DNA of 33,007 bases from a virus (Duplodnaviria > Heunggongvirae > Uroviricota > Caudoviricetes): IMG/VR virus record IMGVR_UViG_2547132254_000003, positions 1 through 33,007 of that record. One strand, 5' to 3'. The position numbers were made by a program, and so were the translations under genes. Positions within the stretch are counted from its first letter, which is position 1, and the number at the start of each line of letters is the position of its first letter. The notes under the pieces were generated by a model. That model saw only the letters and a program-made list of their open reading frames with translations, ran no database searches and was not told the DNA's origin. Below are positions 1,419-22,524 of this stretch, piece by piece.

Positions 1419-3890
1419 TTAAAAATCAGCCTGACTCGGGATCAGTTTTTGCCAGATAACTGAAACGTATTTTGCCTGGTAACGGGCGTCATCAAGTGCA
1501 TTATGGCGCTCACCTTCGAATGGAATAGCCGTTCTGGCATCGAAGTCTATGGCTTTCCCCAGCTCAACGATTGTGCGTACATCGCGATCGTTGTAGTAAC
1601 GCCACGGGCAGGGGATCCCCTGCCGTTCGTATGAACGGCGCAAAATCGTGTTGTCGAAGTTGGCTCCATTTCCCCAGACCTGAACAAAAAATTCACCGGA
1701 GTTTTCGTCGATAAATTCCCGCAATTGTAACAGTGCATCATCTAACGGGATTTCATCGGTCATAATGGCAGATTGCGCTTCGCGTGATTGCTTAAGCCAC
1801 CATTTAATGGTGTCCCGATCAATGACTCCGCCAGCAGTTTCCAGATCGATAGTCTTACTAAATTCCGGTCCCATATCTCCGGTTTGCGGATCGAAAAATA
1901 TTGCACCTATTGAGATGATCGGGGCATCAGGATTTTTTCCCATAGTTTCAAGGTCGATCATTAGATGGTCACACGTCCTGCTGGTGGATGTGATTTCTTG
2001 ATGACCGTTCACCTTAATTGAGTGATCTGCCGTCTCGCCAGTTTCATTATCGCTGGCATGATGCTGATTGCCGCCAGTATTCTCCTTGTGTGGATGTTCA
2101 GCGCCTTCCATTTCCTCCGGATCATCTTCCTGAACTTCAACCTGATACTCTTCATCGAATGTTTCCTGGTATGTTGCGTCGCCCATCACCGCGCCACAAT
2201 CAGGGCAGTTGCCGCCGCCGGTCTGACCGCAGGCGGTGCAGACTTTTTCCACTTCCTGTTGCGCCACTGGTTCAGGCTGTTTCGTTTCTGGCTCGTTTTG
2301 TAACGCATTTGGGCTGTTTTGTTCCGCTTTCTGGTCGTTCTGTTCCGTTTCTTGCTGGTTCTGGTTCACAGAATCGCGGGTCTGGATCCCCTTAACCCAT
2401 TTCGGATCATTCGGGTCGCTAATCCCTTCAACAAATTCACCACGTGATACTGCAAGCAGTTCATCGGCGTCAGGCTGGCTGATATTGGCTGCCTGCATAA
2501 TTTTGTTTACTTCGTCAGCGGTAACTTTTACTGACCCTGGTTGTGCGGTCGTGTCAGATGCACCAGTATTTTGTTGTGAACCTGAGTATGTACCGTTTTT
2601 GCGGGCGAAATATTCTTCTTTCGTGATTTCAGTAGCCCCGGCAGCCAGTGCCTTACCCAGACCAGAAAGTTTGTTTGCGCGACCGTATTTTTCGCCATCC
2701 TTGTCGGTGAAGAGGAAGTAGAACGGCCCCTCACGCTCTACAGATGGTTCGACTTCCACTTTGCATTCGGTTTTTTCGTTGTCCGGAATTGCCGTTTCCA
2801 CTGCATCAGTTTCTGGTACTGGCGCCGAGAGAGTATCAGTTGCGCTCTGATTTCTTCCTTCATCTTCAAACACGCCCTTTGTAGTCAGGTATTCAGTAAT
2901 GTATTTGTTCAGTGCCACAGGGTCTTTGTGAATGTCGATCGGACGTTCACGGACAAGGCCAAAAATAGTCTGGCGGTCGTAGCGAAGGGCATCAGGCTGT
3001 TTGCGCATTGATGCCGAGATACGCTTCCAGTCTTCGCGGTCGTTGTCGATAACTTCATTTTTTGCCCAGCGATGGATGCTGCCGTCAATGTTTCCGGCAT
3101 CCACATCACCAGGCCAGAGAGCGTAGGCCAGTTCGTCATCCAGTGTTTTCCATGTCTGCTTGTATTCGCGATGAGTGGCAGCAATGACCGGGTTGATTTT
3201 TCCTGTTGAATTTTCAGTGTGCTGTTGATTGGCTCTGGCGCGGGCGAGATCAACAACAGACGTGTATTTTCCGGTTTCCTTGCGTTCATCTTCGCGACGT
3301 TTTTTCCAGATGCGCATCTCTGCCTGAATTTCGGGCCATTTGGCACCTGGATTACATTTATGTTTAACCCACCCGATGGCGAGCAGCTTAAGCTCTGAAT
3401 ACATGACGTTAACTTCAGGCATTTTCATCAATGCCTCAACGATATGCCCGTCGAATGTTGCCATGTCCTCCTGCAACAATTCCTGTGCACTAATCACCAT
3501 ATCAACGGTGATGTTTTCACATGTACCGAACTTAACTAGGACCGCGTTCTGTACTTCAAGGGACAGCTTGTCAAAATTGACGTTCATCGGATCGGATTCT
3601 GGTTCGACCGGAATAAAGGAAGCGGATTCCTCATCCCAGTGGTTTTCCTGCATATATTCGGTATCCCAGGAATCAAGGGCAGGGCGGGCCATGCCGGGTT
3701 TATCCTCACAGACAAGAAATTTATAAGCGCAGTCCTGAGCAGCCGGATGTTGCTCCAGGAATTGCCAGGTAAATTTGGCACGGGCGCGGCGTTCGTCGCC
3801 GGCTTCAATGGCAGTGGCTACAGCAACTGCACCTTCTTCCTTTATTGCCTGTTCGTCCGGAATGGCGGCGCAAATAAAGACTTTACTCAT
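1419..3890 (-). CDS. Large exonuclease-like protein, 823 aa, in the RecE position; C-terminal DnaQ-like DEDDh 3'-5' exonuclease domain
   Basis: C-terminal region has IDLETMG (Exo I-like D-x-E) and HNALDDARY (Exo III-like H-x4-D) motifs; central acidic/Q-rich low-complexity segment; a CTACG...CPDCG four-cysteine motif. ATG at 3890 with GAGG upstream. Confidence 0.6.
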   Translation of the reverse strand: MSKVFICAAIPDEQAIKEEGAVAVATAIEAGDERRARAKFTWQFLEQHPAAQDCAYKFLVCEDKPGMARPALDSWDTEYMQENHWDEESASFIPVEPESDPMNVNFDKLSLEVQNAVLVKFGTCENITVDMVISAQELLQEDMATFDGHIVEALMKMPEVNVMYSELKLLAIGWVKHKCNPGAKWPEIQAEMRIWKKRREDERKETGKYTSVVDLARARANQQHTENSTGKINPVIAATHREYKQTWKTLDDELAYALWPGDVDAGNIDGSIHRWAKNEVIDNDREDWKRISASMRKQPDALRYDRQTIFGLVRERPIDIHKDPVALNKYITEYLTTKGVFEDEGRNQSATDTLSAPVPETDAVETAIPDNEKTECKVEVEPSVEREGPFYFLFTDKDGEKYGRANKLSGLGKALAAGATEITKEEYFARKNGTYSGSQQNTGASDTTAQPGSVKVTADEVNKIMQAANISQPDADELLAVSRGEFVEGISDPNDPKWVKGIQTRDSVNQNQQETEQNDQKAEQNSPNALQNEPETKQPEPVAQQEVEKVCTACGQTGGGNCPDCGAVMGDATYQETFDEEYQVEVQEDDPEEMEGAEHPHKENTGGNQHHASDNETGETADHSIKVNGHQEITSTSRTCDHLMIDLETMGKNPDAPIISIGAIFFDPQTGDMGPEFSKTIDLETAGGVIDRDTIKWWLKQSREAQSAIMTDEIPLDDALLQLREFIDENSGEFFVQVWGNGANFDNTILRRSYERQGIPCPWRYYNDRDVRTIVELGKAIDFDARTAIPFEGERHNALDDARYQAKYVSVIWQKLIPSQADF

Positions 3891-4414: not shown

Positions 4415-4467
4415 GGGCGGCAGAGCAGTCACGGAGTAAAACTGATACCGCCAAACGTCACCAGAAA
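4415..4467 (-). ncRNA. dicF: DicF-like small RNA (53 nt) followed by a T-run
   Basis: Reverse complement of 4415-4467 reads TTTCTGGTGACGTTTGGCGGTATCAGTTTTACTCCGTGACTGCTCTGCCGCCC followed by TTTTTA, which matches my memory of E. coli Qin DicF. Located in the leftward early operon. Confidence 0.65.
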
Positions 4468-6044: not shown

Positions 6045-6233
6045 TGAGAAATCCTCTGTTTCCCCTTAACGCCGGGGTAGCGGAACAAAAACCTGCTGCA
6101 TAGTTATTAAAGTTGAACCCTGCCGTCATGTTCTTACGCCTCGGGCTGGCTACTTAACCCCTGACCACTGCCTGGTAACTCGAAGTATTGCCCTGCATTC
6201 TGTGGGGCGGGGTGGGTTGGTATGAAAAGAAGG

Positions 6234-6271
6234 ATACCCATAGGTATTTAAAAAGTAAATACCCATGGGTA
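6234..6271. promoter_or_regulatory. Putative left operator (OL) palindromes
   Basis: ATACCCATAGGTAT (6234-6247) and TACCCATGGGTA (6260-6271) are palindromes with TACC/GGTA arms, located just downstream of the repressor gene's 3' end and upstream of the leftward operon. Confidence 0.35.
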
Positions 6272-6313
6272 AATTTTTGCGGTGTCTTAACTGGTGACTA
6301 GTTGTTTGGTGAG

Positions 6314-6733
6314 CTATGATGCGTTTTGTGCTTTCTTTTTACGGATTTCTTCGTAGATCATATTGTAATACTGTTTTTTCTCTTCAAGAGTTTTTAATAA
6401 TTTATCCGCTTCACTTTCTGGCAGTTCGTCTAAGAGATCTAAAAAAATACGTTGTCGTGGCGTTAGAACCCTTGTTTCATAACTGGAGGCTGTGTTCGTT
6501 GATGATGAAACGATACCATCCATCCATCCCCGGGGTAACCCAAAGGACTCTTCGATAATCTCCACCATATCATCAGCGATCCGTTTTTTTCCCTTTTTCC
6601 CCTCTGGGTACAACATTCTTGATACATAAGAAGGCTCGCGCCCGATCTTTCTGGCCACGTTAACCGCTTTACCATCGCATTTCTCATCACGAATTTTGAT
6701 GAGTTGCTGTCGTCTAAATTCATATTTGTCCAT
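6314..6733 (-). CDS. Prophage repressor (CI/RacR-like HTH protein), 139 aa
   Basis: Divergent from a Cro/YdaS-like gene; flanked on both sides by TACC-n-GGTA palindromes; N-terminal region has HTH-like character. Family from context and motif reading. Confidence 0.65.
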   Translation of the reverse strand: MDKYEFRRQQLIKIRDEKCDGKAVNVARKIGREPSYVSRMLYPEGKKGKKRIADDMVEIIEESFGLPRGWMDGIVSSSTNTASSYETRVLTPRQRIFLDLLDELPESEADKLLKTLEEKKQYYNMIYEEIRKKKAQNAS

Positions 6734-6752
6734 AGGTAAATAATAGATGCGA

Positions 6753-6809
6753 TTACCGCAAGGTAAACAACCTGTGGGTATTGACTTTTGTTTACCTGTG
6801 GGTATTCTT
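6753..6809. promoter_or_regulatory. Putative right operator/promoter region (OR/PR) between the divergent repressor and cro-like genes
   Basis: TTACCGCAAGGTAA (6753-6766), CCTGTGGGTAT (6771-6781) and TACCTGTGGGTA (6793-6804) share the half-site seen at the left operators; TTGACT at 6781-6786 is a candidate -35 for rightward transcription. Confidence 0.4.
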
Positions 6810-6833
6810 TGCTGTGTTTACTAAGGAGTAGCT

Positions 6834-7115
6834 ATGGAAGAATTAAGAATATTTCTCAATTCTCTTTCGTCAGATGAACAGCGTATGTTTGCATGCGAGT
6901 GTGGTACCAGCATCGGTTATCTAAGAAAGGCATTGAGTAAAGGTCAAGTGTTAGGGGCATCGTTATGTGTCCTTATTGAGCGAGCCAGTAATGGTGAAGT
7001 TACACGTCAGCAACTAAGGCCTTTTGATTGGATGAATATTTGGCCCGAGCTGGAAGATACCAAAACGTTAACACAACCACTTTCTAGGAGCTTGATTCAT
7101 GAAAATCAAGCATGA
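6834..7115 (+). CDS. Cro/YdaS-family HTH regulator, 93 aa
   Basis: ATG with AAGGAG upstream; ERASNGEV...QLRPFDW pattern resembles Rac YdaS (ERATRGEV...ELRP); divergent from the repressor. Confidence 0.65.
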   Translation: MEELRIFLNSLSSDEQRMFACECGTSIGYLRKALSKGQVLGASLCVLIERASNGEVTRQQLRPFDWMNIWPELEDTKTLTQPLSRSLIHENQA

Positions 7116-7524
7116 ACACATCCGCATGGCGATGAATGCCTGGGCGCGTCCTGATGGCGAAAAAGTTCCAGCAGCTGGAATAACCCAGGCTTATTTTGAG
7201 TTGGGTATGACGTTCCCAGAACTGTATGACGACAGCCATCCGGAAGCCCTGGCTCGCAATACCCAGAAAATTTTCCGCTGGGTAGAGAAAGACACCCCTG
7301 ATGCTGTTGAAAAAATGCAGGCTCTGTTACCGGCGATCGAAAAGGCGATGCCGCCTTTGCTGGTGGCCCGTATGCGCAGCCACAGTTCTGAATATTACCG
7401 TGAGATCGTCGAACGGAGGGATCGGCTGGTGAAGGATGTCGATGATTTTGTTGCGTCAGCGGTTGTTTTGTATGACCAGATGAATCGCGGCGGCCCGGCA
7501 GGGAATGCTGTGGTGATGCACTAA
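7099..7524 (+). CDS. YdaT-like protein (CII-position regulator), 141 aa
   Basis: Begins MKIKHEHI and ends ...VVMH, as I recall for Rac YdaT; sits between the cro-like and replication genes. Confidence 0.55.
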   Translation: MKIKHEHIRMAMNAWARPDGEKVPAAGITQAYFELGMTFPELYDDSHPEALARNTQKIFRWVEKDTPDAVEKMQALLPAIEKAMPPLLVARMRSHSSEYYREIVERRDRLVKDVDDFVASAVVLYDQMNRGGPAGNAVVMH

Positions 7525-7546
7525 AAGCACGGTGTTCGGGGGTTTT

Positions 7547-8509
7547 ATGAGCAGCAAGCTTCATGGTCTTGTCTGGGAAGGGTGCGCCTTCACCGGCATG
7601 ATCTTATCCAGGGTGGCGGTTATGGCCCGTCTTGCAGACTACAGCAATGACGAGGGCGTGTCATGGCCTGCCATTGAAACTATCCGGCGTCAGATCGGTG
7701 CAAGAAGTGAATCCACAGTGAAATCGGCTATTGCAGAACTGGCGAAAGAGGGCTGGCTGACGAAGGAAGAGCGTAAGGTCGGTGGGCGTAATGTAAGCAA
7801 TATCTATCGGCTTAATGTGGAAAAACTCGAAGCAGCTGCGGCGGCGGCGCGTGAGTCATATAAACCGAAAAGAAAAATTAGCCCGGCAAAAAATGACCCG
7901 TTAACAGTTGACCCGTCAAATATTGACCCCTCAACGGTTGACCCGTCAAATTTTGATGGATCAACTGTTGATAAAAAACTGCCGATTAGGGGGGCGATGA
8001 TTGACCCCGATCCGTCAGTATTAAAACCTGATCCGTCAGATAAAAGATCTTCTTGTCCGGACGCTTCGCAACCGGACCCGCAGACGGCTGAACAGGATTT
8101 TTTAACCCGACACCCTGACGCGGTTGTGTTCAGTGCGAAAAAACGCCAGTGGGGAAGTCAGGAAGATTTGGTGTGCGCACAGTGGATCTGGGGACGAATC
8201 GTGAGTCTTTACGAGCAGGCGGCCAGCTATGATGGCGAGATCACTAGACCGAAAGAACCCAACTGGACAGCATGGGCCAATGACGTTCGCACAATGCGGA
8301 TGCTGGATGGCAGAACTCACAGACAAATTTGTGAAATGTTTGGGCGTCTCCAGCGGGATTCGTTCTGGGTAAAAAACATCATGAGTCCGGCAAAACTCCG
8401 GGAAAAATGGGATGAACTGGTTATCCGCCTGGGGCGTTCGCCTGCGCAGCGTTGCGTGAATCACATTTCTGAACCGGACACTGAAATACCGCCGGGATTC
8501 AGGGGGTGA
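7547..8509 (+). CDS. Replication initiator (lambda O-like / YdaU-like), about 320 aa
   Basis: Position upstream of a DnaC-like loader; N-terminal HTH-like domain; contains an internal array of 15-bp iteron-like repeats encoding a D-P-S/T-rich linker, as the lambda origin lies inside O. ORF track starts at GTG 7532; ATG at 7547 used. Confidence 0.65.
   Translation: MSSKLHGLVWEGCAFTGMILSRVAVMARLADYSNDEGVSWPAIETIRRQIGARSESTVKSAIAELAKEGWLTKEERKVGGRNVSNIYRLNVEKLEAAAAAARESYKPKRKISPAKNDPLTVDPSNIDPSTVDPSNFDGSTVDKKLPIRGAMIDPDPSVLKPDPSDKRSSCPDASQPDPQTAEQDFLTRHPDAVVFSAKKRQWGSQEDLVCAQWIWGRIVSLYEQAASYDGEITRPKEPNWTAWANDVRTMRMLDGRTHRQICEMFGRLQRDSFWVKNIMSPAKLREKWDELVIRLGRSPAQRCVNHISEPDTEIPPGFRG
7893..7967. 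repeat. Iteron-like direct repeats (five units, 15-bp period), putative replication origin inside the initiator gene
   Basis: TGACCCGTTAACAG, TTGACCCGTCAA, TTGACCCCTCAA, TTGACCCGTCAA and TTGATGGATCAA start at 7893, 7908, 7923, 7938 and 7953; each unit has internal dyad symmetry; an AT-richer stretch follows. Confidence 0.55.
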
Positions 8510-8515
8510 CGTGTC

Positions 8516-9262
8516 ATGAAAAACATTGCGGCAGTTGGGGTTCTTGAACGTATTCGCAGACTTGCACCACAGGGGTCGGTTCCACCGTACCGGACGGTGG
8601 AGGAGTGGCGGGAATGGCAACTTGCTGAAGGACGAAAACGCAGCGAGGAGATTAACCGCCAGAATCGCCAGTTGCGGGTGGAAAAAATCCTGAATCGTTC
8701 GGGCATCCAGCCTCTGCACAGCAAATGCTCGTTTGCAAATTATCAGGTGCAGAACGACGGGCAAAAATACGCGCTGAGCCAGGCCAAATCCATAGCTGAC
8801 GAACTGATGACCGGGTGCACGAATTTTGTGTTCAGCGGTAAAACCGGCACCGGGAAAAATCACCTTGCAGCGGCGATGGGCAACCGGCTGATGGTGAAGG
8901 GGCGCAGCGTGATTATCGTCACCGTGTCTGACGTCATGAGCGTGTTGCATGACAGCTACGACAACGGCAAATCCGGGGAAAAATTTTTACAGGAGCTTTG
9001 CGGGGTTGATTTGCTGGTCCTGGATGAAATAGGCGTTCAGCGGGAGACGAAAAACGAGCAGGTGGTATTGCACCAGATAATTGATCGCCGGACAGCATCA
9101 CTGTGCAGTGTCGGGATGTTAACAAACCTGAATCATGCCGCAATGAGTACGCTTCTTGGTGAGAGGATTATGGACCGCATGACCATGAACGGTGGTCGAT
9201 GGGTGACGTTTAACTGGGATAGCTGGCGTCCAAATGTCAGCAATATGAGGGTTGTGAAGTAA
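8516..9262 (+). CDS. DnaC-like helicase loader (IstB-type AAA+ ATPase; YdaV-like), 248 aa
   Basis: Walker A FSGKTGTGKNHLAAAMG and Walker B LLVLDEIG; position after the initiator; same length as Rac YdaV. Confidence 0.85.
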   Translation: MKNIAAVGVLERIRRLAPQGSVPPYRTVEEWREWQLAEGRKRSEEINRQNRQLRVEKILNRSGIQPLHSKCSFANYQVQNDGQKYALSQAKSIADELMTGCTNFVFSGKTGTGKNHLAAAMGNRLMVKGRSVIIVTVSDVMSVLHDSYDNGKSGEKFLQELCGVDLLVLDEIGVQRETKNEQVVLHQIIDRRTASLCSVGMLTNLNHAAMSTLLGERIMDRMTMNGGRWVTFNWDSWRPNVSNMRVVK

Positions 9263-9283
9263 TTTTGTCCGGAGGAAATTTTA

Positions 9284-10054
9284 ATGGAAACCGTATCTGA
9301 CGCACTGAAAGCACTGAAAAAAGCCTCTTCACATGTGGTGGCAGCTCGCCTTGGAATCAGTCGTGAAGAGGCTGTCAACGAGCTGTGGGAACTCAAAAGA
9401 AAAGGCGTCGTTGATAAAACTGGTCACACCTGGTTTCTGGCTGGCGAAGGTGAATCCCGGGTAACCGAAGAGCGGCCAGTAAAATCTGAAGCACAGGATA
9501 TGCTGACCGGGGAGGTCGAACAAAAAGTTACCGCAGACATGATGATTGAGTTTATCGGTCAGGATGGGGCTAAAACGTGTGAGGAACTGGCGGGTAAGTT
9601 CGGTGTCAGTACTCGCAAGGTTGCTTCCACGCTGGCGGTGGTAACCGCAACGGGGCGGCTGGCACGCGTTAATCAGAACGGTAAATTTCGTTACTGCATG
9701 CCGGGCGATAATTTACCAGCAGAGCCGAAAGCCGCGCTGGTAACGGAAAGTGATGGTAAGGCCTTTCCTCAGCCAGCAGGTGCTGCGTTACCAGTCCGGG
9801 AAGCCGCAACACAGGAAGAAATTAAAACAGAAACTGTGGCGGACATTGTGCAGCCGTTGCCATCGTTTACCGAAACGCAAGCAGATGAGCTGATTTTTCC
9901 GTCCCTTCGCAGGGCAAACCTGGCGCTGCGCAGGGCGAAAAGTGATGTTCAGAAGTGGGAGCGAGTCTGCGCCGCGCTGCGGGAGCTGAACAAGCACCGG
10001 GATATTGTTCGACAGATTACTGATTCTTCCCGCCGTGTTGTATCGGAAAAGTGA
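9284..10054 (+). CDS. Hypothetical phage protein, 256 aa
   Basis: ATG with GGAGGA upstream; no motif recognised. Confidence 0.5.
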   Translation: METVSDALKALKKASSHVVAARLGISREEAVNELWELKRKGVVDKTGHTWFLAGEGESRVTEERPVKSEAQDMLTGEVEQKVTADMMIEFIGQDGAKTCEELAGKFGVSTRKVASTLAVVTATGRLARVNQNGKFRYCMPGDNLPAEPKAALVTESDGKAFPQPAGAALPVREAATQEEIKTETVADIVQPLPSFTETQADELIFPSLRRANLALRRAKSDVQKWERVCAALRELNKHRDIVRQITDSSRRVVSEK

Positions 10055-10069
10055 TTGCCGGAGGCGCTT

Positions 10070-10495
10070 ATGGCAAAAGTATTTACACAAGAAGAGCGGG
10101 AAAAAATTAAAGGGCAGGTTGTTGAACTTGTACGTCTGAGCGGTCGCGAGACGTTGCGGCAACTGGAAGCCAGGACAGGTGCGACAAGATATCTGATGAG
10201 TGTTCTCGCCAGAGAGCTGGTTGCCAGTGGCGATGTATACAACTCTGGTTACGGGTTATTCCCGTCTGAACAGGCGCGTAAGGACTGGCAAAATGCTCGC
10301 AAAAAACTCTCAAGGGCAAAGGTGAAGAAACCTGCAGTGGTTGATCCGGACCTTATCTGGTCGTTACCAGACGGCGAAATACGCCGCTACGACAGGCGCC
10401 TGAATATAATCTGTCGCGAGTGCCGGAAGAGCGAAGCTATGCAGCGTGTACTGGCATTTTATCAAGGAAATGTTAGGTATTTTAGACGTTACTAG
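10070..10495 (+). CDS. Hypothetical phage protein, about 141 aa
   Basis: ATG at 10070 with GGAGG upstream (ORF track begins at 10055); cysteine pair CRECRK near the C-terminus. Confidence 0.5.
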   Translation: MAKVFTQEEREKIKGQVVELVRLSGRETLRQLEARTGATRYLMSVLARELVASGDVYNSGYGLFPSEQARKDWQNARKKLSRAKVKKPAVVDPDLIWSLPDGEIRRYDRRLNIICRECRKSEAMQRVLAFYQGNVRYFRRY

Positions 10496-10648
10496 ATTAA
10501 AGAGCATTAGTTCAGATGTGAATTGACATTTTCATGGCGCAGGGTAGAGCCAGCGTGGTTGTCCGCTTTGCGTCAAAACCAGATATTACCAGATTTAGAC
10601 ATATATTCCCGATAGACCTGCTCTGATGCTACACTCTGTGCTATTTTC

Positions 10649-11335
10649 ATGACCCCAATAAAAATATTTATGACTATTGCTGATTTCAAACGGCCTAAAT
10701 TGGAGCTCCCAAACGGGGCAAACAAACTACTACTGCACTCTTGCTGTGCTCCATGTTCCGGTGAAGTGATGGAGGCGCTTCAGGCCTCGGGAATCGACTA
10801 CACCATCTTTTTCTACAACCCGAACATTCATCCTCAGAAAGAGTATTTAATTCGTAAGGATGAAAATATTCGCTTTGCTGAACAACACGGCGTGCCGTTT
10901 ATCGATGCTGATTACGACACCGACAACTGGTTTGAACGTGCCAAAGGAATGGAATGGGAGCCTGAGAGGGGGATCCGTTGTACCATGTGTTTTGACATGC
11001 GTTTTGAGCGGACAGCGTTGTACGCTGCTGAAAATGGTTTCAGTGTGATCAGCAGTTCACTGGGCATTTCACGCTGGAAAAATATGCAGCAGGTTAACGA
11101 GTGTGGGCGGCGAGCTGTTGCGCATTATCCGGGTATGGTGTACTGGGATTATAACTGGCGCAAGCAGGGCGGCTCGTCCCGTATGATTGAAATCAGCAAG
11201 CGCGAAAAATTCTATCAGCAGGAATATTGTGGCTGTGTGTATTCTCTGCGCGATACCAATCTACACCGCAAATCTCAGGGACGCCCTCTTATCAAAATTG
11301 GCCAACTCCACTACGGAAAAGAAGAGAAGGAGTGA
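10649..11335 (+). CDS. DUF208/QueH-like protein (epoxyqueuosine reductase-like), 228 aa
   Basis: N-terminal [11 protein letters not shown] cysteine motif and further conserved cysteines (CTMC, CGC) recalled from the QueH family; candidate promoter TTGACA ... TACACT in the upstream intergenic region, so it looks like a moron. Confidence 0.5.
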
Positions 11336-11514
11336 TTTTATGGATCACCTTTCTGATTGATTTTATATTGGCGAGGTAACGGGAGTTAAGTAGAATGGCT
11401 GCGGGTGCTTGAGGCTATCTGTCTCAGGCATGAACACCAAAGGCAGATAGAGAAAAGCCCCAGTTAACATTACGCGTCCTGCAAGACGCTTAACATTAAT
11501 CTGAGGCTCAATCT

Positions 11515-11727
11515 ATGAACGGCAAATCTAGGTTAGCCTCTTACGTGCCGAAAGGCAAGGAGAAGCAGGCTATGAAGCAGCAAAAGGCGATGTTAATCGC
11601 CCTGATCGTCATCTGTTTAACCGTCATTGTGACGGCACTGGTAACGAGGAAAGACCTCTGCGAGGTACGAATCCGAACCGGCCAGACGGAGGTCGCTGTC
11701 TTCACAGCTTACGAACCTGAGGAGTAA
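11515..11727 (+). CDS. mok: Mok-like in-frame leader ORF overlapping hok, 70 aa
   Basis: In-frame upstream extension of the Hok ORF with GAGG upstream, analogous to chromosomal mokC/hokC organisation. Confidence 0.45.
   Translation: MNGKSRLASYVPKGKEKQAMKQQKAMLIALIVICLTVIVTALVTRKDLCEVRIRTGQTEVAVFTAYEPEE
11572..11727 (+). CDS. hok: Hok/Gef-family type I toxin, 51 aa
   Basis: MKQQKAMLIALIVICLTVIVTALVTRKDLCEVRIRTGQTEVAVFTAYEPEE: single TM helix plus the conserved RKDLCEV-IRTGQTEVAVFTAYE core of Hok/Gef; AAGGAG upstream of the ATG. Confidence 0.8.
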   Translation: MKQQKAMLIALIVICLTVIVTALVTRKDLCEVRIRTGQTEVAVFTAYEPEE

Positions 11728-11799: not shown

Positions 11800-13128
11800 C
11801 TGATGAATCCCCTAATGATTTTTATCAAAATCATTAAGTTAAGGTAGATACACATCTTGTCATATGATCAAATGGTTTCGCCAAAAATCAATAATCAGAC
11901 AACAAAATGTGCGAACTCGATATTTTACACGACTCTCTTTACCAATTCTGCCCCGAATTACACTTAAAACGACTCAACTGCTTAACGTTGGCTTGCCACG
12001 CCTTACTTGACTGTAAAACTCTCACTCTTACCGAACTTGGCCGTAACCTGCCAACCAAAGCGAGAACAAAACATAACATCAAACGAATCGACCGATTGTT
12101 AGGTAATCGTCACCTCCACAAAGAGCGACTCGCTGTATACCGTTGGCATGCTAGCTTTATCTGTTCGGGCAATACGATGCCCATTGTACTTGTTGACTGG
12201 TCTGATATCCGTGAGCAAAAACGGCTTATGGTATTGCGAGCTTCAGTCGCACTACACGGTCGTTCTGTTACTCTTTATGAGAAAGCGTTCCCGCTTTCAG
12301 AGCAATGTTCAAAGAAAGCTCATGACCAATTTCTAGCCGACCTTGCGAGCATTCTACCGAGTAACACCACACCGCTCATTGTCAGTGATGCTGGCTTTAA
12401 AGTGCCATGGTATAAATCCGTTGAGAAGCTGGGTTGGTACTGGTTAAGTCGAGTAAGAGGAAAAGTACAATATGCAGACCTAGGAGCGGAAAACTGGAAA
12501 CCTATCAGCAACTTACATGATATGTCATCTAGTCACTCAAAGACTTTAGGCTATAAGAGGCTGACTAAAAGCAATCCAATCTCATGCCAAATTCTATTGT
12601 ATAAATCTCGCTCTAAAGGCCGAAAAAATCAGCGCTCGACACGGACTCATTGTCACCACCCGTCACCTAAAATCTACTCAGCGTCGGCAAAGGAGCCATG
12701 GATTCTAGCAACTAACTTACCTGTTGAAATTCGAACACCCAAACAACTTGTTAATATCTATTCGAAGCGAATGCAGATTGAAGAAACCTTCCGAGACTTG
12801 AAAAGTCCTGCCTACGGACTAGGCCTACGCCATAGCCGAACGAGCAGCTCAGAGCGTTTTGATATCATGCTGCTAATCGCCCTGATGCTTCAACTAACAT
12901 GTTGGCTTGCGGGCGTTCATGCTCAGAAACAAGGTTGGGACAAGCACTTCCAGGCTAACACAGTCAGAAATCGAAACGTACTCTCAACAGTTCGCTTAGG
13001 CATGGAAGTTTTGCGGCATTCTGGCTACACAATAACAAGGGAAGACTCACTCGTGGCTGCAACCCTGCTTACTCAAAATCTATTCACACATGGTTACGTT
13101 TTGGGGAAATTATGAGGGGATCTCTCAG
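11800..13128 (+). mobile_element. IS10 (IS4 family), 1329 bp, intact, with terminal inverted repeats
   Basis: Left end CTGATGAATCCCCTAATGATTTT (IS10 outside end), right end reverse complement CTGAGAGATCCCCTCATAATTTCCCC (inside end); length 1329 bp; flanked by a perfect 9-bp direct repeat. Confidence 0.9.
11907..13115 (+). CDS. IS10 transposase, 402 aa
   Basis: Full-length ORF, MCELDILHDSLYQFCPELHLKRLN... matching my recollection of IS10/Tn10 transposase almost residue for residue; no frameshift or stop. Confidence 0.9.
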   Translation: MCELDILHDSLYQFCPELHLKRLNCLTLACHALLDCKTLTLTELGRNLPTKARTKHNIKRIDRLLGNRHLHKERLAVYRWHASFICSGNTMPIVLVDWSDIREQKRLMVLRASVALHGRSVTLYEKAFPLSEQCSKKAHDQFLADLASILPSNTTPLIVSDAGFKVPWYKSVEKLGWYWLSRVRGKVQYADLGAENWKPISNLHDMSSSHSKTLGYKRLTKSNPISCQILLYKSRSKGRKNQRSTRTHCHHPSPKIYSASAKEPWILATNLPVEIRTPKQLVNIYSKRMQIEETFRDLKSPAYGLGLRHSRTSSSERFDIMLLIALMLQLTCWLAGVHAQKQGWDKHFQANTVRNRNVLSTVRLGMEVLRHSGYTITREDSLVAATLLTQNLFTHGYVLGKL

Positions 13129-16478: not shown

Positions 16479-16554
16479 GGCCCTTTAGCTCAGTGGTGAG
16501 AGCGAGCGACTCATAATCGCCAGGTCGCTGGTTCAAATCCAGCAAGGGCCACCA
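16479..16554 (+). tRNA. tRNA with anticodon CAU, Ile2 (lysidine)-like, 76 nt, CCA encoded
   Basis: Cloverleaf folds by eye; anticodon loop CUCAUAA; close to my memory of E. coli ileX. Ile versus Met cannot be decided from the anticodon alone. Confidence 0.75.
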
Positions 16555-16555
16555 G

Positions 16556-16632
16556 CCGCCACTAGCTCATCAGGAAAGAGCGTCAACCCTTTAAGTTGAG
16601 TGTGCGAGGTTCGAGTCCCCGGTGGCGGTCCA
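16556..16632 (+). tRNA. tRNA-like gene, 77 nt, noncanonical anticodon loop; identity uncertain
   Basis: All stems pair except one A-C mismatch in the T-stem; anticodon loop CCUUUAA has C at position 33 (normally U), giving nominal anticodon UUU; begins with C1-G72. Confidence 0.5.
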
Positions 16633-16634
16633 GT

Positions 16635-16710
<76 letters not shown>

Positions 16711-16713
16711 TAT

Positions 16714-16788
<75 letters not shown>

Positions 16789-20767: not shown

Positions 20768-22524
20768 TGGCAAAAGTGGCTGACGGGATCCGCTACGCCG
20801 AACGTGTTGTTGCAGGAGAAATTGTTGCTGGCGAATTTGTCCGTCTGGCCTGCCAGCGTTTTCTTGATGATCTGAAGTACGGCGAAGAGCGGGGGATTTA
20901 TTTCAGTGAACCTCGTGCACAGCACATCCTTAATTTCTACAAATTTGTACCCCATGTGAAAGGGGCGCTGGCAGGTCAGCCCATTGAGTTGATGGACTGG
21001 CATGTGTTTATCCTCATTAATATTTTTGGTTTTGTCATTCCGCTGGTGAATGAAGAAACCGGGGAAGTTGTCATGCGCAGCGATGGCAGTGGACGCCCGG
21101 TGATGGTGCGCCGGTTCCGGACAGCATACAACGAAGTTGCCCGTAAAAACGCAAAATCAACCCTGTCATCGGGTATCGGTCTGTATATGACGGGGGCAGA
21201 TGGTGAAGGCGGGGCTGAGGTGTATTCAGCCGCAACCACGCGTGATCAGGCCAGAATCGTGTTTGAAGACGCCAAAAATATGGTCAGAAAAGCCCGGTCG
21301 ACACTCGGGCGGTTGTTTGACTTCAACAAGCTGGCGATTTACCAGGAGCAGAGCGCATCAAAATTTGAACCGCTTTCCTCGGATGCAAACAACCTGGACG
21401 GTCTGAACATCCACTGCGCCATTATTGATGAACTGCATGCTCATAAAACCCGTGACGTGTGGGACGTTCTGGAAACGGCAACCGGTGCCCGTCTGCAGTC
21501 TCTGTTATTTGGCATCACCACGGCTGGCTTTAACAAGGAAGGGATTTGCTACGAGCAGCGTGATTACGCCATCAAGGTATTGCGAGGCTATAACAGCGAC
21601 GTGGAGGGCGCGGTAAAAGACGACTCCTACTTTGCGATCATTTACACGCTCGATGAGGGAGATGATCCGTTTGATGAAACGGTCTGGCAGAAAGCGAATC
21701 CTGGCCTGGGCATCTGTAAACGCTGGGATGATCTGCGTCGTCTGGCGAAAAAAGCGAAGGAGCAGGTCTCTGCGCGGGTGAATTTTTTTACCAAACACAT
21801 GAATGTGTGGGTCACTGCCGAATCTGCCTGGATGGATATGATTAAGTGGGAGAAGTGCGAATACATTGCTCCACAACATGAGCTGAAAACATATCCCATG
21901 TGGGTCGGCGTAGACCTTGCTCATAAGATTGATATCTGTGCGGCGGCAAAACTATGGCGAACCGATAACGGACATGTTCATGCTGATTTTAAATTCTGGC
22001 TTCCGGAAGGACGGCTGGAGCGATGCTCGCGGCAGCAGGCAGAACTTTACCGGAAGTGGGCGGAGATGGATAAGCTCATCCTGACGGATGGTGATGTTAT
22101 CGATCATGCTCAGATAAAAAGTGACTTACTGGAATGGATTGGCGGTGAAAACCTCAGGGAACTGGGATTTGACCCGTGGAGCGCAATGCAGTTCAGCCTG
22201 GCACTGGCTGAAGAAGGGATACCGCTGGTGGAGGTTCCGCAGACGGTCCGCAATCTGTCAGAGGCCATGAAGGAAACGGAATCACTGGTTTATGCCGGGC
22301 GTTTCCATCACAGCAATCATCCGGTCATGAACTGGATGATGTCTAACGTTACGGTAAAACCGGACAAAAACGACAACATCTTCCCGAATAAATCCACGCC
22401 TGAAGCCAAAATCGACGGCCCTGTTGCGCTTTTTACGGCCATGAGCCGCTTTCTGGTAAATGGCGGGGGCGTGAATGACTTTCTGTCCACGCTTGATCCT
22501 GATGAGGACCTGTTAATTCTGTGA
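20767..22524 (+). CDS. Terminase large subunit (HK97-like), 585 aa
   Basis: Size, ATPase-like N-terminal half and nuclease-like C-terminal half; ATG overlaps the TerS stop. Confidence 0.85.
   Translation: MAKVADGIRYAERVVAGEIVAGEFVRLACQRFLDDLKYGEERGIYFSEPRAQHILNFYKFVPHVKGALAGQPIELMDWHVFILINIFGFVIPLVNEETGEVVMRSDGSGRPVMVRRFRTAYNEVARKNAKSTLSSGIGLYMTGADGEGGAEVYSAATTRDQARIVFEDAKNMVRKARSTLGRLFDFNKLAIYQEQSASKFEPLSSDANNLDGLNIHCAIIDELHAHKTRDVWDVLETATGARLQSLLFGITTAGFNKEGICYEQRDYAIKVLRGYNSDVEGAVKDDSYFAIIYTLDEGDDPFDETVWQKANPGLGICKRWDDLRRLAKKAKEQVSARVNFFTKHMNVWVTAESAWMDMIKWEKCEYIAPQHELKTYPMWVGVDLAHKIDICAAAKLWRTDNGHVHADFKFWLPEGRLERCSRQQAELYRKWAEMDKLILTDGDVIDHAQIKSDLLEWIGGENLRELGFDPWSAMQFSLALAEEGIPLVEVPQTVRNLSEAMKETESLVYAGRFHHSNHPVMNWMMSNVTVKPDKNDNIFPNKSTPEAKIDGPVALFTAMSRFLVNGGGVNDFLSTLDPDEDLLIL

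Follow-up and report, generated by a model that had tools for sequence, protein, structure and literature searches.

A probable iteron-type replication origin inside the initiator gene of a lambdoid prophage

The initiator gene and its repeats

The DNA analyzed here, referred to as the window, comprises positions 1–33,007 (33,007 nucleotides) of the Caudoviricetes record IMGVR_UViG_2547132254_000003 in IMG/VR, a lambdoid prophage. It contains a replication initiator gene whose middle part holds a periodic array of short palindromic repeats, located between the coding regions of a winged helix-turn-helix (wHTH) domain (residues 1–104) and a C-terminal domain (residues 181–298). The array comprises five to six units (7893–7979) and is followed by two conserved boxes that overlap a stretch of low duplex stability. 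It is likely that the array is the iteron cluster of the prophage replication origin, lying inside the gene of the initiator that reads it. The gene and the features within it are listed below.

7547..8509, + strand: replication initiator gene, 320 amino acids plus stop, ATG at 7547
7547..7858, + strand: N-terminal winged-helix domain (residues 1–104), the presumed iteron reader
7893..7964: five-iteron array, 12-bp palindromes of the form TTGA-N4-TCAA
start 7893: iteron unit 1, ATGACCCGTTAA, read directly
starts 7908 and 7938: iteron units 2 and 4, both TTGACCCGTCAA, read directly
start 7923: iteron unit 3, TTGACCCCTCAA, read directly
start 7953: iteron unit 5, TTGATGGATCAA, symmetry kept by paired changes (TTGAT..ATCAA)
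7968..7979: sixth unit, degenerate, TTGATAAAAAAC, keeping the register of the array but only its left half-site
8001..8012: incomplete iteron, TTGACCCCGATC, which overlaps box 1
8009..8020: conserved box 1, GATCCGTCAGTA, with a Dam site
8015..8054: least stable duplex stretch and candidate unwinding element, 67.5% AT
8030..8041: conserved box 2, GATCCGTCAGAT, 21 bp after box 1 and containing a Dam site
8042..8509, + strand: C-terminal module, exchanged independently of the N-terminal module
8050..8100: GC-rich stretch bounding the AT patch; the 40-mer at 8050 is 35% AT, and its instability is at the 2nd percentile of the window

The start-to-start distance between units is exactly 15 bp throughout, including the degenerate sixth, and inverted arms of the form TTGA(C)/(G)TCAA give dyad symmetry to all five complete units. 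The original prediction, made from the sequence alone, had described five internally palindromic repeats spaced by 15 bp, and direct reading agrees on both counts. The proposed repeat-finder check gave the same answer: Tandem Repeats Finder reports a period of 15 bp with 5 copies and a period of 30 bp with 2.5–3 copies (scores 56–101). With up to two mismatches allowed, the iteron pattern matches nine times in the 33-kb window against 2.47 expected, a count reached by none of 100 shuffles, and seven of the nine matches, on five sites, fall within the array. Isolated matches at 22169 and 30452, the latter within a tape-measure open reading frame (ORF), were taken as chance. Neither Tandem Repeats Finder nor the pattern search identified another iteron-like array near the replication genes of the window, Rfam returned no RNA family in the array region, and a consensus scan placed no promoter or terminator inside the array. 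One-mismatch matches to the DnaA box flank the array on the minus strand (7816–7824, TTTTCCACA; 7966–7974, TTATCAACA). Across the window, 12 such matches against an expected 7 is not a significant excess, and by eye neither of the two looks conserved among relatives; both were dismissed.

The array is in frame within the gene and encodes the peptide NDPLT-VDPSN-IDPST-VDPSN-FDGST, in keeping with the D-P-S/T-rich interdomain linker that had been anticipated for the middle of the initiator. An AlphaFold model built from 36 homologues predicts residues 109–169 to be disordered (predicted local distance difference test, pLDDT, <50), which is exactly the stretch encoded by the array and boxes, and a helical C-terminal domain at residues 181–298. 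The modeled N-terminal domain (pLDDT 76–91) contains helices at residues 3–15, 20–31, 43–50, and 55–67, a β-hairpin wing at 71–89, and a last helix at 91–104; it is the single winged-helix domain in the model. Searches with Foldseek using this domain returned only generic dimeric wHTH regulators, every one with E >1e-3.

The ATG at 7547 agrees with the Prokaryotic Genome Annotation Pipeline (PGAP) annotation of a 99.7%-identical prophage of Escherichia coli O157:H7, where the RefSeq label of the protein is only "helix-turn-helix domain-containing protein." PHROG 391 ("replication initiation O-like") covers the full length of the initiator (E 2e-115), and Pfam HTH_36 (PF13730) matches its N-terminal domain at 27.8 bits against a cut-off of 25 bits, with relatives scoring 40–45 bits. 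Phage_rep_O (PF04492), which is matched by lambda O, P22 gp18, and phi80 gp15, is not matched by the window initiator. BLASTP detected no similarity in the N-terminal domain, and the Pfam scan of the protein gave no Rep_3-type match. The C-terminal domains are homologous: residues 182–300 are 39% identical to lambda O residues 171–277 over 119 residues (E 5e-26), and identity to phi80 gp15 in this domain is 36%.

The last ~20 residues of the initiator (window 8444–8506, ...ISEPDTEIPPGFRG) are similar to the C-terminal end of E. coli DnaT. This tail is retained across initiators with differing C-terminal domains and even with unrelated N-terminal domains (POCJ13), and is also present in loci L001–L007 and L172. 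The order of initiator and DnaC-like gene mirrors that of the host dnaT–dnaC operon. The literature on the DnaT-like tail did not settle its role.

Conservation and inheritance of the array

The initiator was compared with relatives from eight phages (SfIV, phiP27, phiNP, YeP1, and Klebsiella and Escherichia phages) and from 80 loci of different Enterobacterales species. The original prediction named, as the finding that would tell against it, related initiator genes that lack the repeats yet replicate normally from a mapped origin elsewhere. The 15-bp periodic array was found at the equivalent position in all 86 non-redundant full-length genes, which belong to many Enterobacterales genera. 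The family-wide equivalent of the iteron, TGA-N4-TCA, occurs at 15.75 sites per kb in the array segment and at 0.45 per kb in the remainder of the gene, with adjacent sites separated by 15 bp in 166 cases and by 30 bp in 23. Array copy number ranges from about 2 to 7 across the family, and near-identical E. coli copies differ by exactly one 15-bp unit.

Codon usage separates selection on the DNA from selection on the peptide. Units were defined by the amino-acid pattern [D/E]-x-S alone, to keep the test independent of the DNA motif. Among these linker units, 479 of 550 (87%) have TCA as the Ser codon, whereas 16% of Ser residues elsewhere in the same genes use TCA. The base preceding GA is T in 367 of the 550 units, though it contributes to codons for many different residues (S, F, G, P, T, Q, V, I). 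Between D and S the residue is free to change (P, A, T, G, V), whereas the DNA half-sites are fixed. In 85 genes, the four synonymous third positions of box 1 retain 1.5–2.0 bits, whereas invariant residues with four- or six-fold degeneracy in the N-terminal domain of the same genes have a mean near 0.45 bits. On these figures synonymous sites are saturated across the family except in the array and boxes; selection there acts on the DNA and not on the peptide. Units in reverse-complement form (DPS encoded by TTGACCCCTCAA, EGS by TTGAGGGGTCAA) are a minority and count only as anecdotal evidence.

The Dam sites of the two boxes downstream of the array are conserved, with GATC present in box 1 in 84 of 85 genes and a second GATC following it in 78 of 85. 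GATC density among relatives is 29.7 per kb in the box region and 3.2 per kb in the remainder of the gene, and the densest GATC cluster of the window consists of the four sites at 7959–8049. One natural variant lacks exactly 21 bp, such that boxes 1 and 2 are collapsed into one. The 40-mer starting at 8015 is the least stable in the gene and lies at the 97.5th percentile of the window. When duplex stability is averaged across the family (85 loci, 1.6-kb span), the clearest minimum falls 20–35 nt after box 1 (−35.6 vs. about −42 kcal/mol per 30 bp), with a GC-rich maximum at +65.

Evidence on which domain reads the repeats comes from natural domain exchange. The window shares 86% DNA identity with mEp460, HannyBb, and PhiR42_1 from position 8042 onward, immediately after box 2. 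The mEp460 initiator thus has the same C-terminal domain, joined to an unrelated, Pfam-unassigned N-terminal domain, and its gene contains no TGA-N4-TCA site. At the equivalent position (L171, 1632–1761) it carries instead five copies of another repeat, with a spacing of 23–24 bp and the core GGTCAAAATGA, which look like another undescribed iteron set. Within the family, unit flanks vary with the subtype of the N-terminal domain. The window subtype, found in Escherichia, Erwinia, Mixta, Edwardsiella, and Morganella, is 90% identical within the type over residues 1–50 and 64% identical to the rest; its units read TTGA...TCAA with variable flanks (13/13), while SfIV-type units read CTGA...TCAAAAT in 208 of 241 cases. 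The N-terminal module is joined to at least three kinds of C-terminal domain. As judged from these comparisons, the array and the N-terminal DNA-binding domain are inherited together, an exchange of the domain bringing other repeats with it, and N-terminal domain, array, boxes, and AT patch make up one heritable module.

Candidate origin and alternative explanations

The array is best explained as the iteron cluster of a replication origin because it is present in every relative examined, is constrained at the DNA level, is lost with the domain swap in mEp460, and co-varies in its flanks with the N-terminal subtype. The homology of the C-terminal domain to lambda O and phi80 gp15, whose iterons share this gene position, points in the same direction, as do the family-wide stability minimum just after the boxes and the GC-rich stretch beyond it, an order also found in ori-lambda. 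The linker over which the array is written is predicted to be disordered, and the array changes by whole 15-bp units. An origin is further suggested by a 16-kb circular element made of this region only, with no typed replicon, and by the literature rule for lambdoid initiators (PMC8022706). From this body of evidence we infer binding by the initiator, unwinding, helicase loading, and origin activity.

In the proposed mechanism, dimers of the N-terminal winged-helix domain would bind each TTGA-N4-TCAA palindrome. A nucleoprotein complex would assemble on five to six such sites at 15-bp intervals and on two or three related GATCCGTCAG boxes at 21-bp intervals, and this complex would destabilize the adjacent low-stability stretch (about 8015–8054). 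The lambda-O-like C-terminal domain and the DnaT-like tail would then recruit DnaB helicase of the host by way of the DnaC-like loader, the product of the neighboring gene. Such an array may be tolerated in a coding region because the encoded disordered linker accepts almost any small or polar residues.

The circular element is NZ_CP148542.1 (L175), a 15,977-bp E. coli "plasmid" that consists solely of a lambdoid early-right region, is 98% identical to window 7093–10471, and is without a typed plasmid replicon. In these respects it resembles a natural lambda-dv-like mini-replicon. Its initiator frame slips and then recovers next to the GATC sites, in a manner that looks like long-read error. 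Other plasmid matches were mostly megaplasmids or mis-assigned chromosomes bearing prophages, and were set aside.

Several points weigh against an origin at this site. The circle just described could be an assembly artifact, and its initiator frame is disturbed in the record. The AT-richer stretch predicted to follow the repeats is present, but it is modest compared with its counterpart in lambda (67.5% vs. 77.5% AT) and is split by box 2, a conserved GATCCGTCAG box. The 15-bp spacing differs from the 20–24 bp of lambda, phi80, and P22, and the geometry of any complex may differ as well. Codon conservation reveals selection at the DNA level and not the identity of the binder, and the literature yielded no binding, footprint, origin-mapping, or replication assay for this initiator family.

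Among the alternatives, the one with most in its favor is that the repeats bind the initiator or another protein in a regulatory role (autoregulation, copy-number control by handcuffing, or a transcription roadblock) while the origin lies elsewhere in the prophage. Co-variation with the N-terminal domain links that domain to the repeats and not to origin function, and the weakness of the AT-rich element would be accounted for. This explanation is nonetheless unlikely, given that neither repeat finding nor the pattern search shows a second iteron-like array near the replication genes, that lambda and phi80, with their homologous C-terminal domains, have their mapped origins at this position, and that a conserved stability dip and GC-rich stretch come right after the sites. 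We consider it very unlikely that the junction DNA is conserved as a boundary sequence that promotes homologous recombination among lambdoid modules. The location of the mosaic breakpoint with mEp460-type genes directly behind box 2, at 8042, and the several C-terminal types joined to the N-terminal module would suit such a role; a phased array of palindromic half-sites whose flanks co-vary with the N-terminal subtype would be left unexplained, and recombination at a conserved origin is equally likely to be a consequence as a cause.

Slippage could in principle have produced a repetitive flexible linker under selection for the peptide only, with the DNA repeats as a by-product, and the low-complexity, disordered nature of the encoded segment and its gain or loss of whole units are what such a process would leave. 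The codon data largely refute this account, which we regard as extremely improbable: it explains neither the preference for TCA in the array nor the T conserved before GA across differing residues, and it is at odds with box synonymous sites that are near-invariant while those of the N-terminal domain are saturated and with half-sites that stay fixed around a free middle residue in D-x-S. Least probable is a long hairpin or cruciform in mRNA or single-stranded DNA, acting for example as a primosome-assembly signal or translational pause. The segment 7885–7975 folds at −32.6 kcal/mol as RNA (z −6.7) and −17.1 as DNA (z −5.6), and the family median fold z is −4.6. However, against a null that keeps the TGA/TCA half-sites and randomizes the orientation of the centers, real arrays fold worse (median z +1.1, 0/45 below −2), and the centers are strongly biased toward one orientation (CGCA 31 vs. 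TGCG 5; CCCG 29 vs. CGGG 5). As the fold signal is gone under this null, the self-complementarity is a by-product of palindromic half-sites, and the hairpin or cruciform was rejected.

The origin interpretation can be extended to a possible role of adenine methylation. The gene directly downstream of the initiator differs among the relatives:

35/84 loci: Dam-type adenine methylase (Pfam Dam 29, D12 class 6)
23/84 loci: unknown 152-residue protein
8/84 loci: lambda P homologue, 7/8 beside lambda-O-type C-terminal domains
6/84 loci: DnaC-like loader, including the window and phiP27

Examples of the methylase gene are found at 2370–3248 in L002, at 2481–3287 in L003, and in 33 other family loci. 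It is tempting to speculate that the state of adenine methylation controls when the origin fires, or how SeqA sequesters it afterward, in the manner of oriC and P1 oriR, and that the tight 15-bp phasing of dimer sites (about 1.4 helical turns) builds a filament unlike the lambda O-some. The basis for methylation gating is a near-invariant GATC pair, 21 bp apart in the predicted unwinding stretch, and the Dam-type gene downstream in about 40% of relatives. We regard this extension as tentative and on balance doubtful, and conservation of GATC may simply reflect its being part of a protein-binding box.

The replication module is common: of 5,426 complete E. coli genomes, 1,517 contain the N-terminal half of the initiator gene at ≥80% coverage, O157:H7 among them, and the protein has 914 homologous clusters at 90% identity. 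The candidate origin is a testable target for studies of prophage replication after induction, including in pathogenic strains. One DNA stretch would serve two purposes here, a protein-binding array being written into coding sequence by way of a disordered linker. Lambdoid phages are the textbook case of this principle, and confirmation would extend rather than change known biology.

Early operon and comparison with known systems

The initiator gene lies in a region (window 6059–11507) with 99.7% identity to the E. coli O157:H7 prophage. Its immediate neighbors are the following.

6314–6733, − strand: divergent repressor gene
6781..6808, + strand: pR-like promoter (consensus scan only), between the repressor gene and the cro/YdaS-like gene
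6834–7115: cro/YdaS-like gene
7099–7524: YdaT-like gene
8516..9262, + strand: DnaC/IstB-like helicase loader gene (Pfam IstB_IS21, E 7e-19)

The consensus scan places pR- and pRM-like promoters between the divergent repressor and the cro/YdaS-like gene, and transcription from the pR-like promoter would run across cro and the YdaT-like gene into the initiator and its array. Assignment of the loader is supported by NCBIfam PRK12377 (506 bits), DnaC (299 bits), and PHROG 50 ("DnaC-like helicase loader"). Genes with DUF1627 and DUF977 follow the loader, and the whole order is that of a lambdoid early-right operon.

Further features were noted elsewhere in the window. A QueH gene (10649–11335, + strand; epoxyqueuosine reductase according to the matching RefSeq prophage) lies directly beyond the replication module, and a sok antitoxin RNA was identified at 11403–11577 (+ strand; Rfam, 110 bits). 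After sok, an IS10-type insertion interrupts the nin-like region of the prophage; its RNA-OUT (11845–11914, − strand, 97 bits) overlaps the start of a 402-residue ORF (11907–13115, + strand) that encodes a putative transposase. Four tRNA genes (Met-CAT, Lys-TTT, Thr-TGT, and Gly-TCC; 16479–16788, + strand) are located downstream of the antiterminator region. In the early-left region, a DicF antisense RNA gene (4415–4466, − strand; Rfam, 76.7 bits) was identified, and the related O157 prophage has dicB, ydfC, and ydfB nearby. A 21-bp tandem repeat (2277–2363, 4.1 copies, 70% matches) lies within a large leftward ORF (1419–3890), whose match in the related prophage carries the annotation exonuclease.

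Initiators that bind iterons within their own gene are established for lambda and accepted for P22 and phi80, and for phage L such binding is a prediction (PMC8022706); the presence of iterons within lambdoid initiator genes is treated as a rule (PMC8022706). A literature search by concept and by literal motif found no description of the repeats of the present HTH_36 initiator family.

Iteron plasmids (RepE, π, RepA) share with the window a winged-helix initiator and tandem direct repeats beside an unwinding element. Their iterons, however, lie outside the rep gene, usually at a spacing of about 22 bp, and are bound by monomers with two winged-helix domains, whereas the window initiator has one predicted winged-helix domain, palindromic sites inside its gene, and no Rep_3-type match. 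P1 oriR and E. coli oriC are comparable in that a GATC cluster lies in or next to the presumed unwinding region here. Those origins are sensitive to Dam methylation, and the likeness of the window to them rests on GATC conservation and the frequent adjacent Dam gene.

Among lambdoid phages, phi80 (gene 15), P22 (gene 18), and phage L (gene 18) likewise carry the iterons of each initiator within its coding region. The annotated iterons of phi80 are at the same place in the gene, the C-terminal domain of gp15 is homologous, and the DNA after the phi80 iterons (AGTATTAAAAGATCTTCGTCCG) resembles window 8016–8062. In contrast to the window, phi80 and P22 have Phage_rep_O N-terminal domains and unrelated iteron sequences at a spacing of about 21 bp. 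"Replication protein 15," the name of a Pantoea homologue, was considered as a hint of a phi80 origin and rejected, as phi80 gp15 shares only the C-terminal domain.

The closest parallel is ori-lambda, where direct repeats with internal dyad symmetry also lie inside the initiator gene at the boundary of N- and C-terminal domains, with a stretch of low duplex stability and then GC-rich DNA beyond them, and belong to a rightward early operon, after cro and a gene in the position of cII. The C-terminal domains of the two initiators are homologous. They differ in the N-terminal domain (HTH_36 here, Phage_rep_O in lambda O), in the repeats (a 12-bp core at 15-bp spacing in 5–6 copies, compared with four iterons of 18–19 bp at 20–24 bp in lambda), in an AT-rich part that is weaker here and interleaved with two conserved GATC boxes, and in the partner protein, which is a DnaC-like ATPase in place of lambda P, although some window-type relatives have a P-like partner. 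The original comparison with the lambda layout therefore stands in the position within the gene, the homology of the C-terminal domain, and the outcome of the comparative tests, and does not extend to the DNA-binding domain, which is non-homologous, or to a strong AT element. The window very probably contains a lambda-style origin within the initiator gene, an expected arrangement, in a family whose iterons we found undescribed. Its unusual points are the 15-bp phasing, the two tiers of sites, with a variable array and universal boxes, and a pair of conserved GATC sites that often has a Dam gene as its neighbor.

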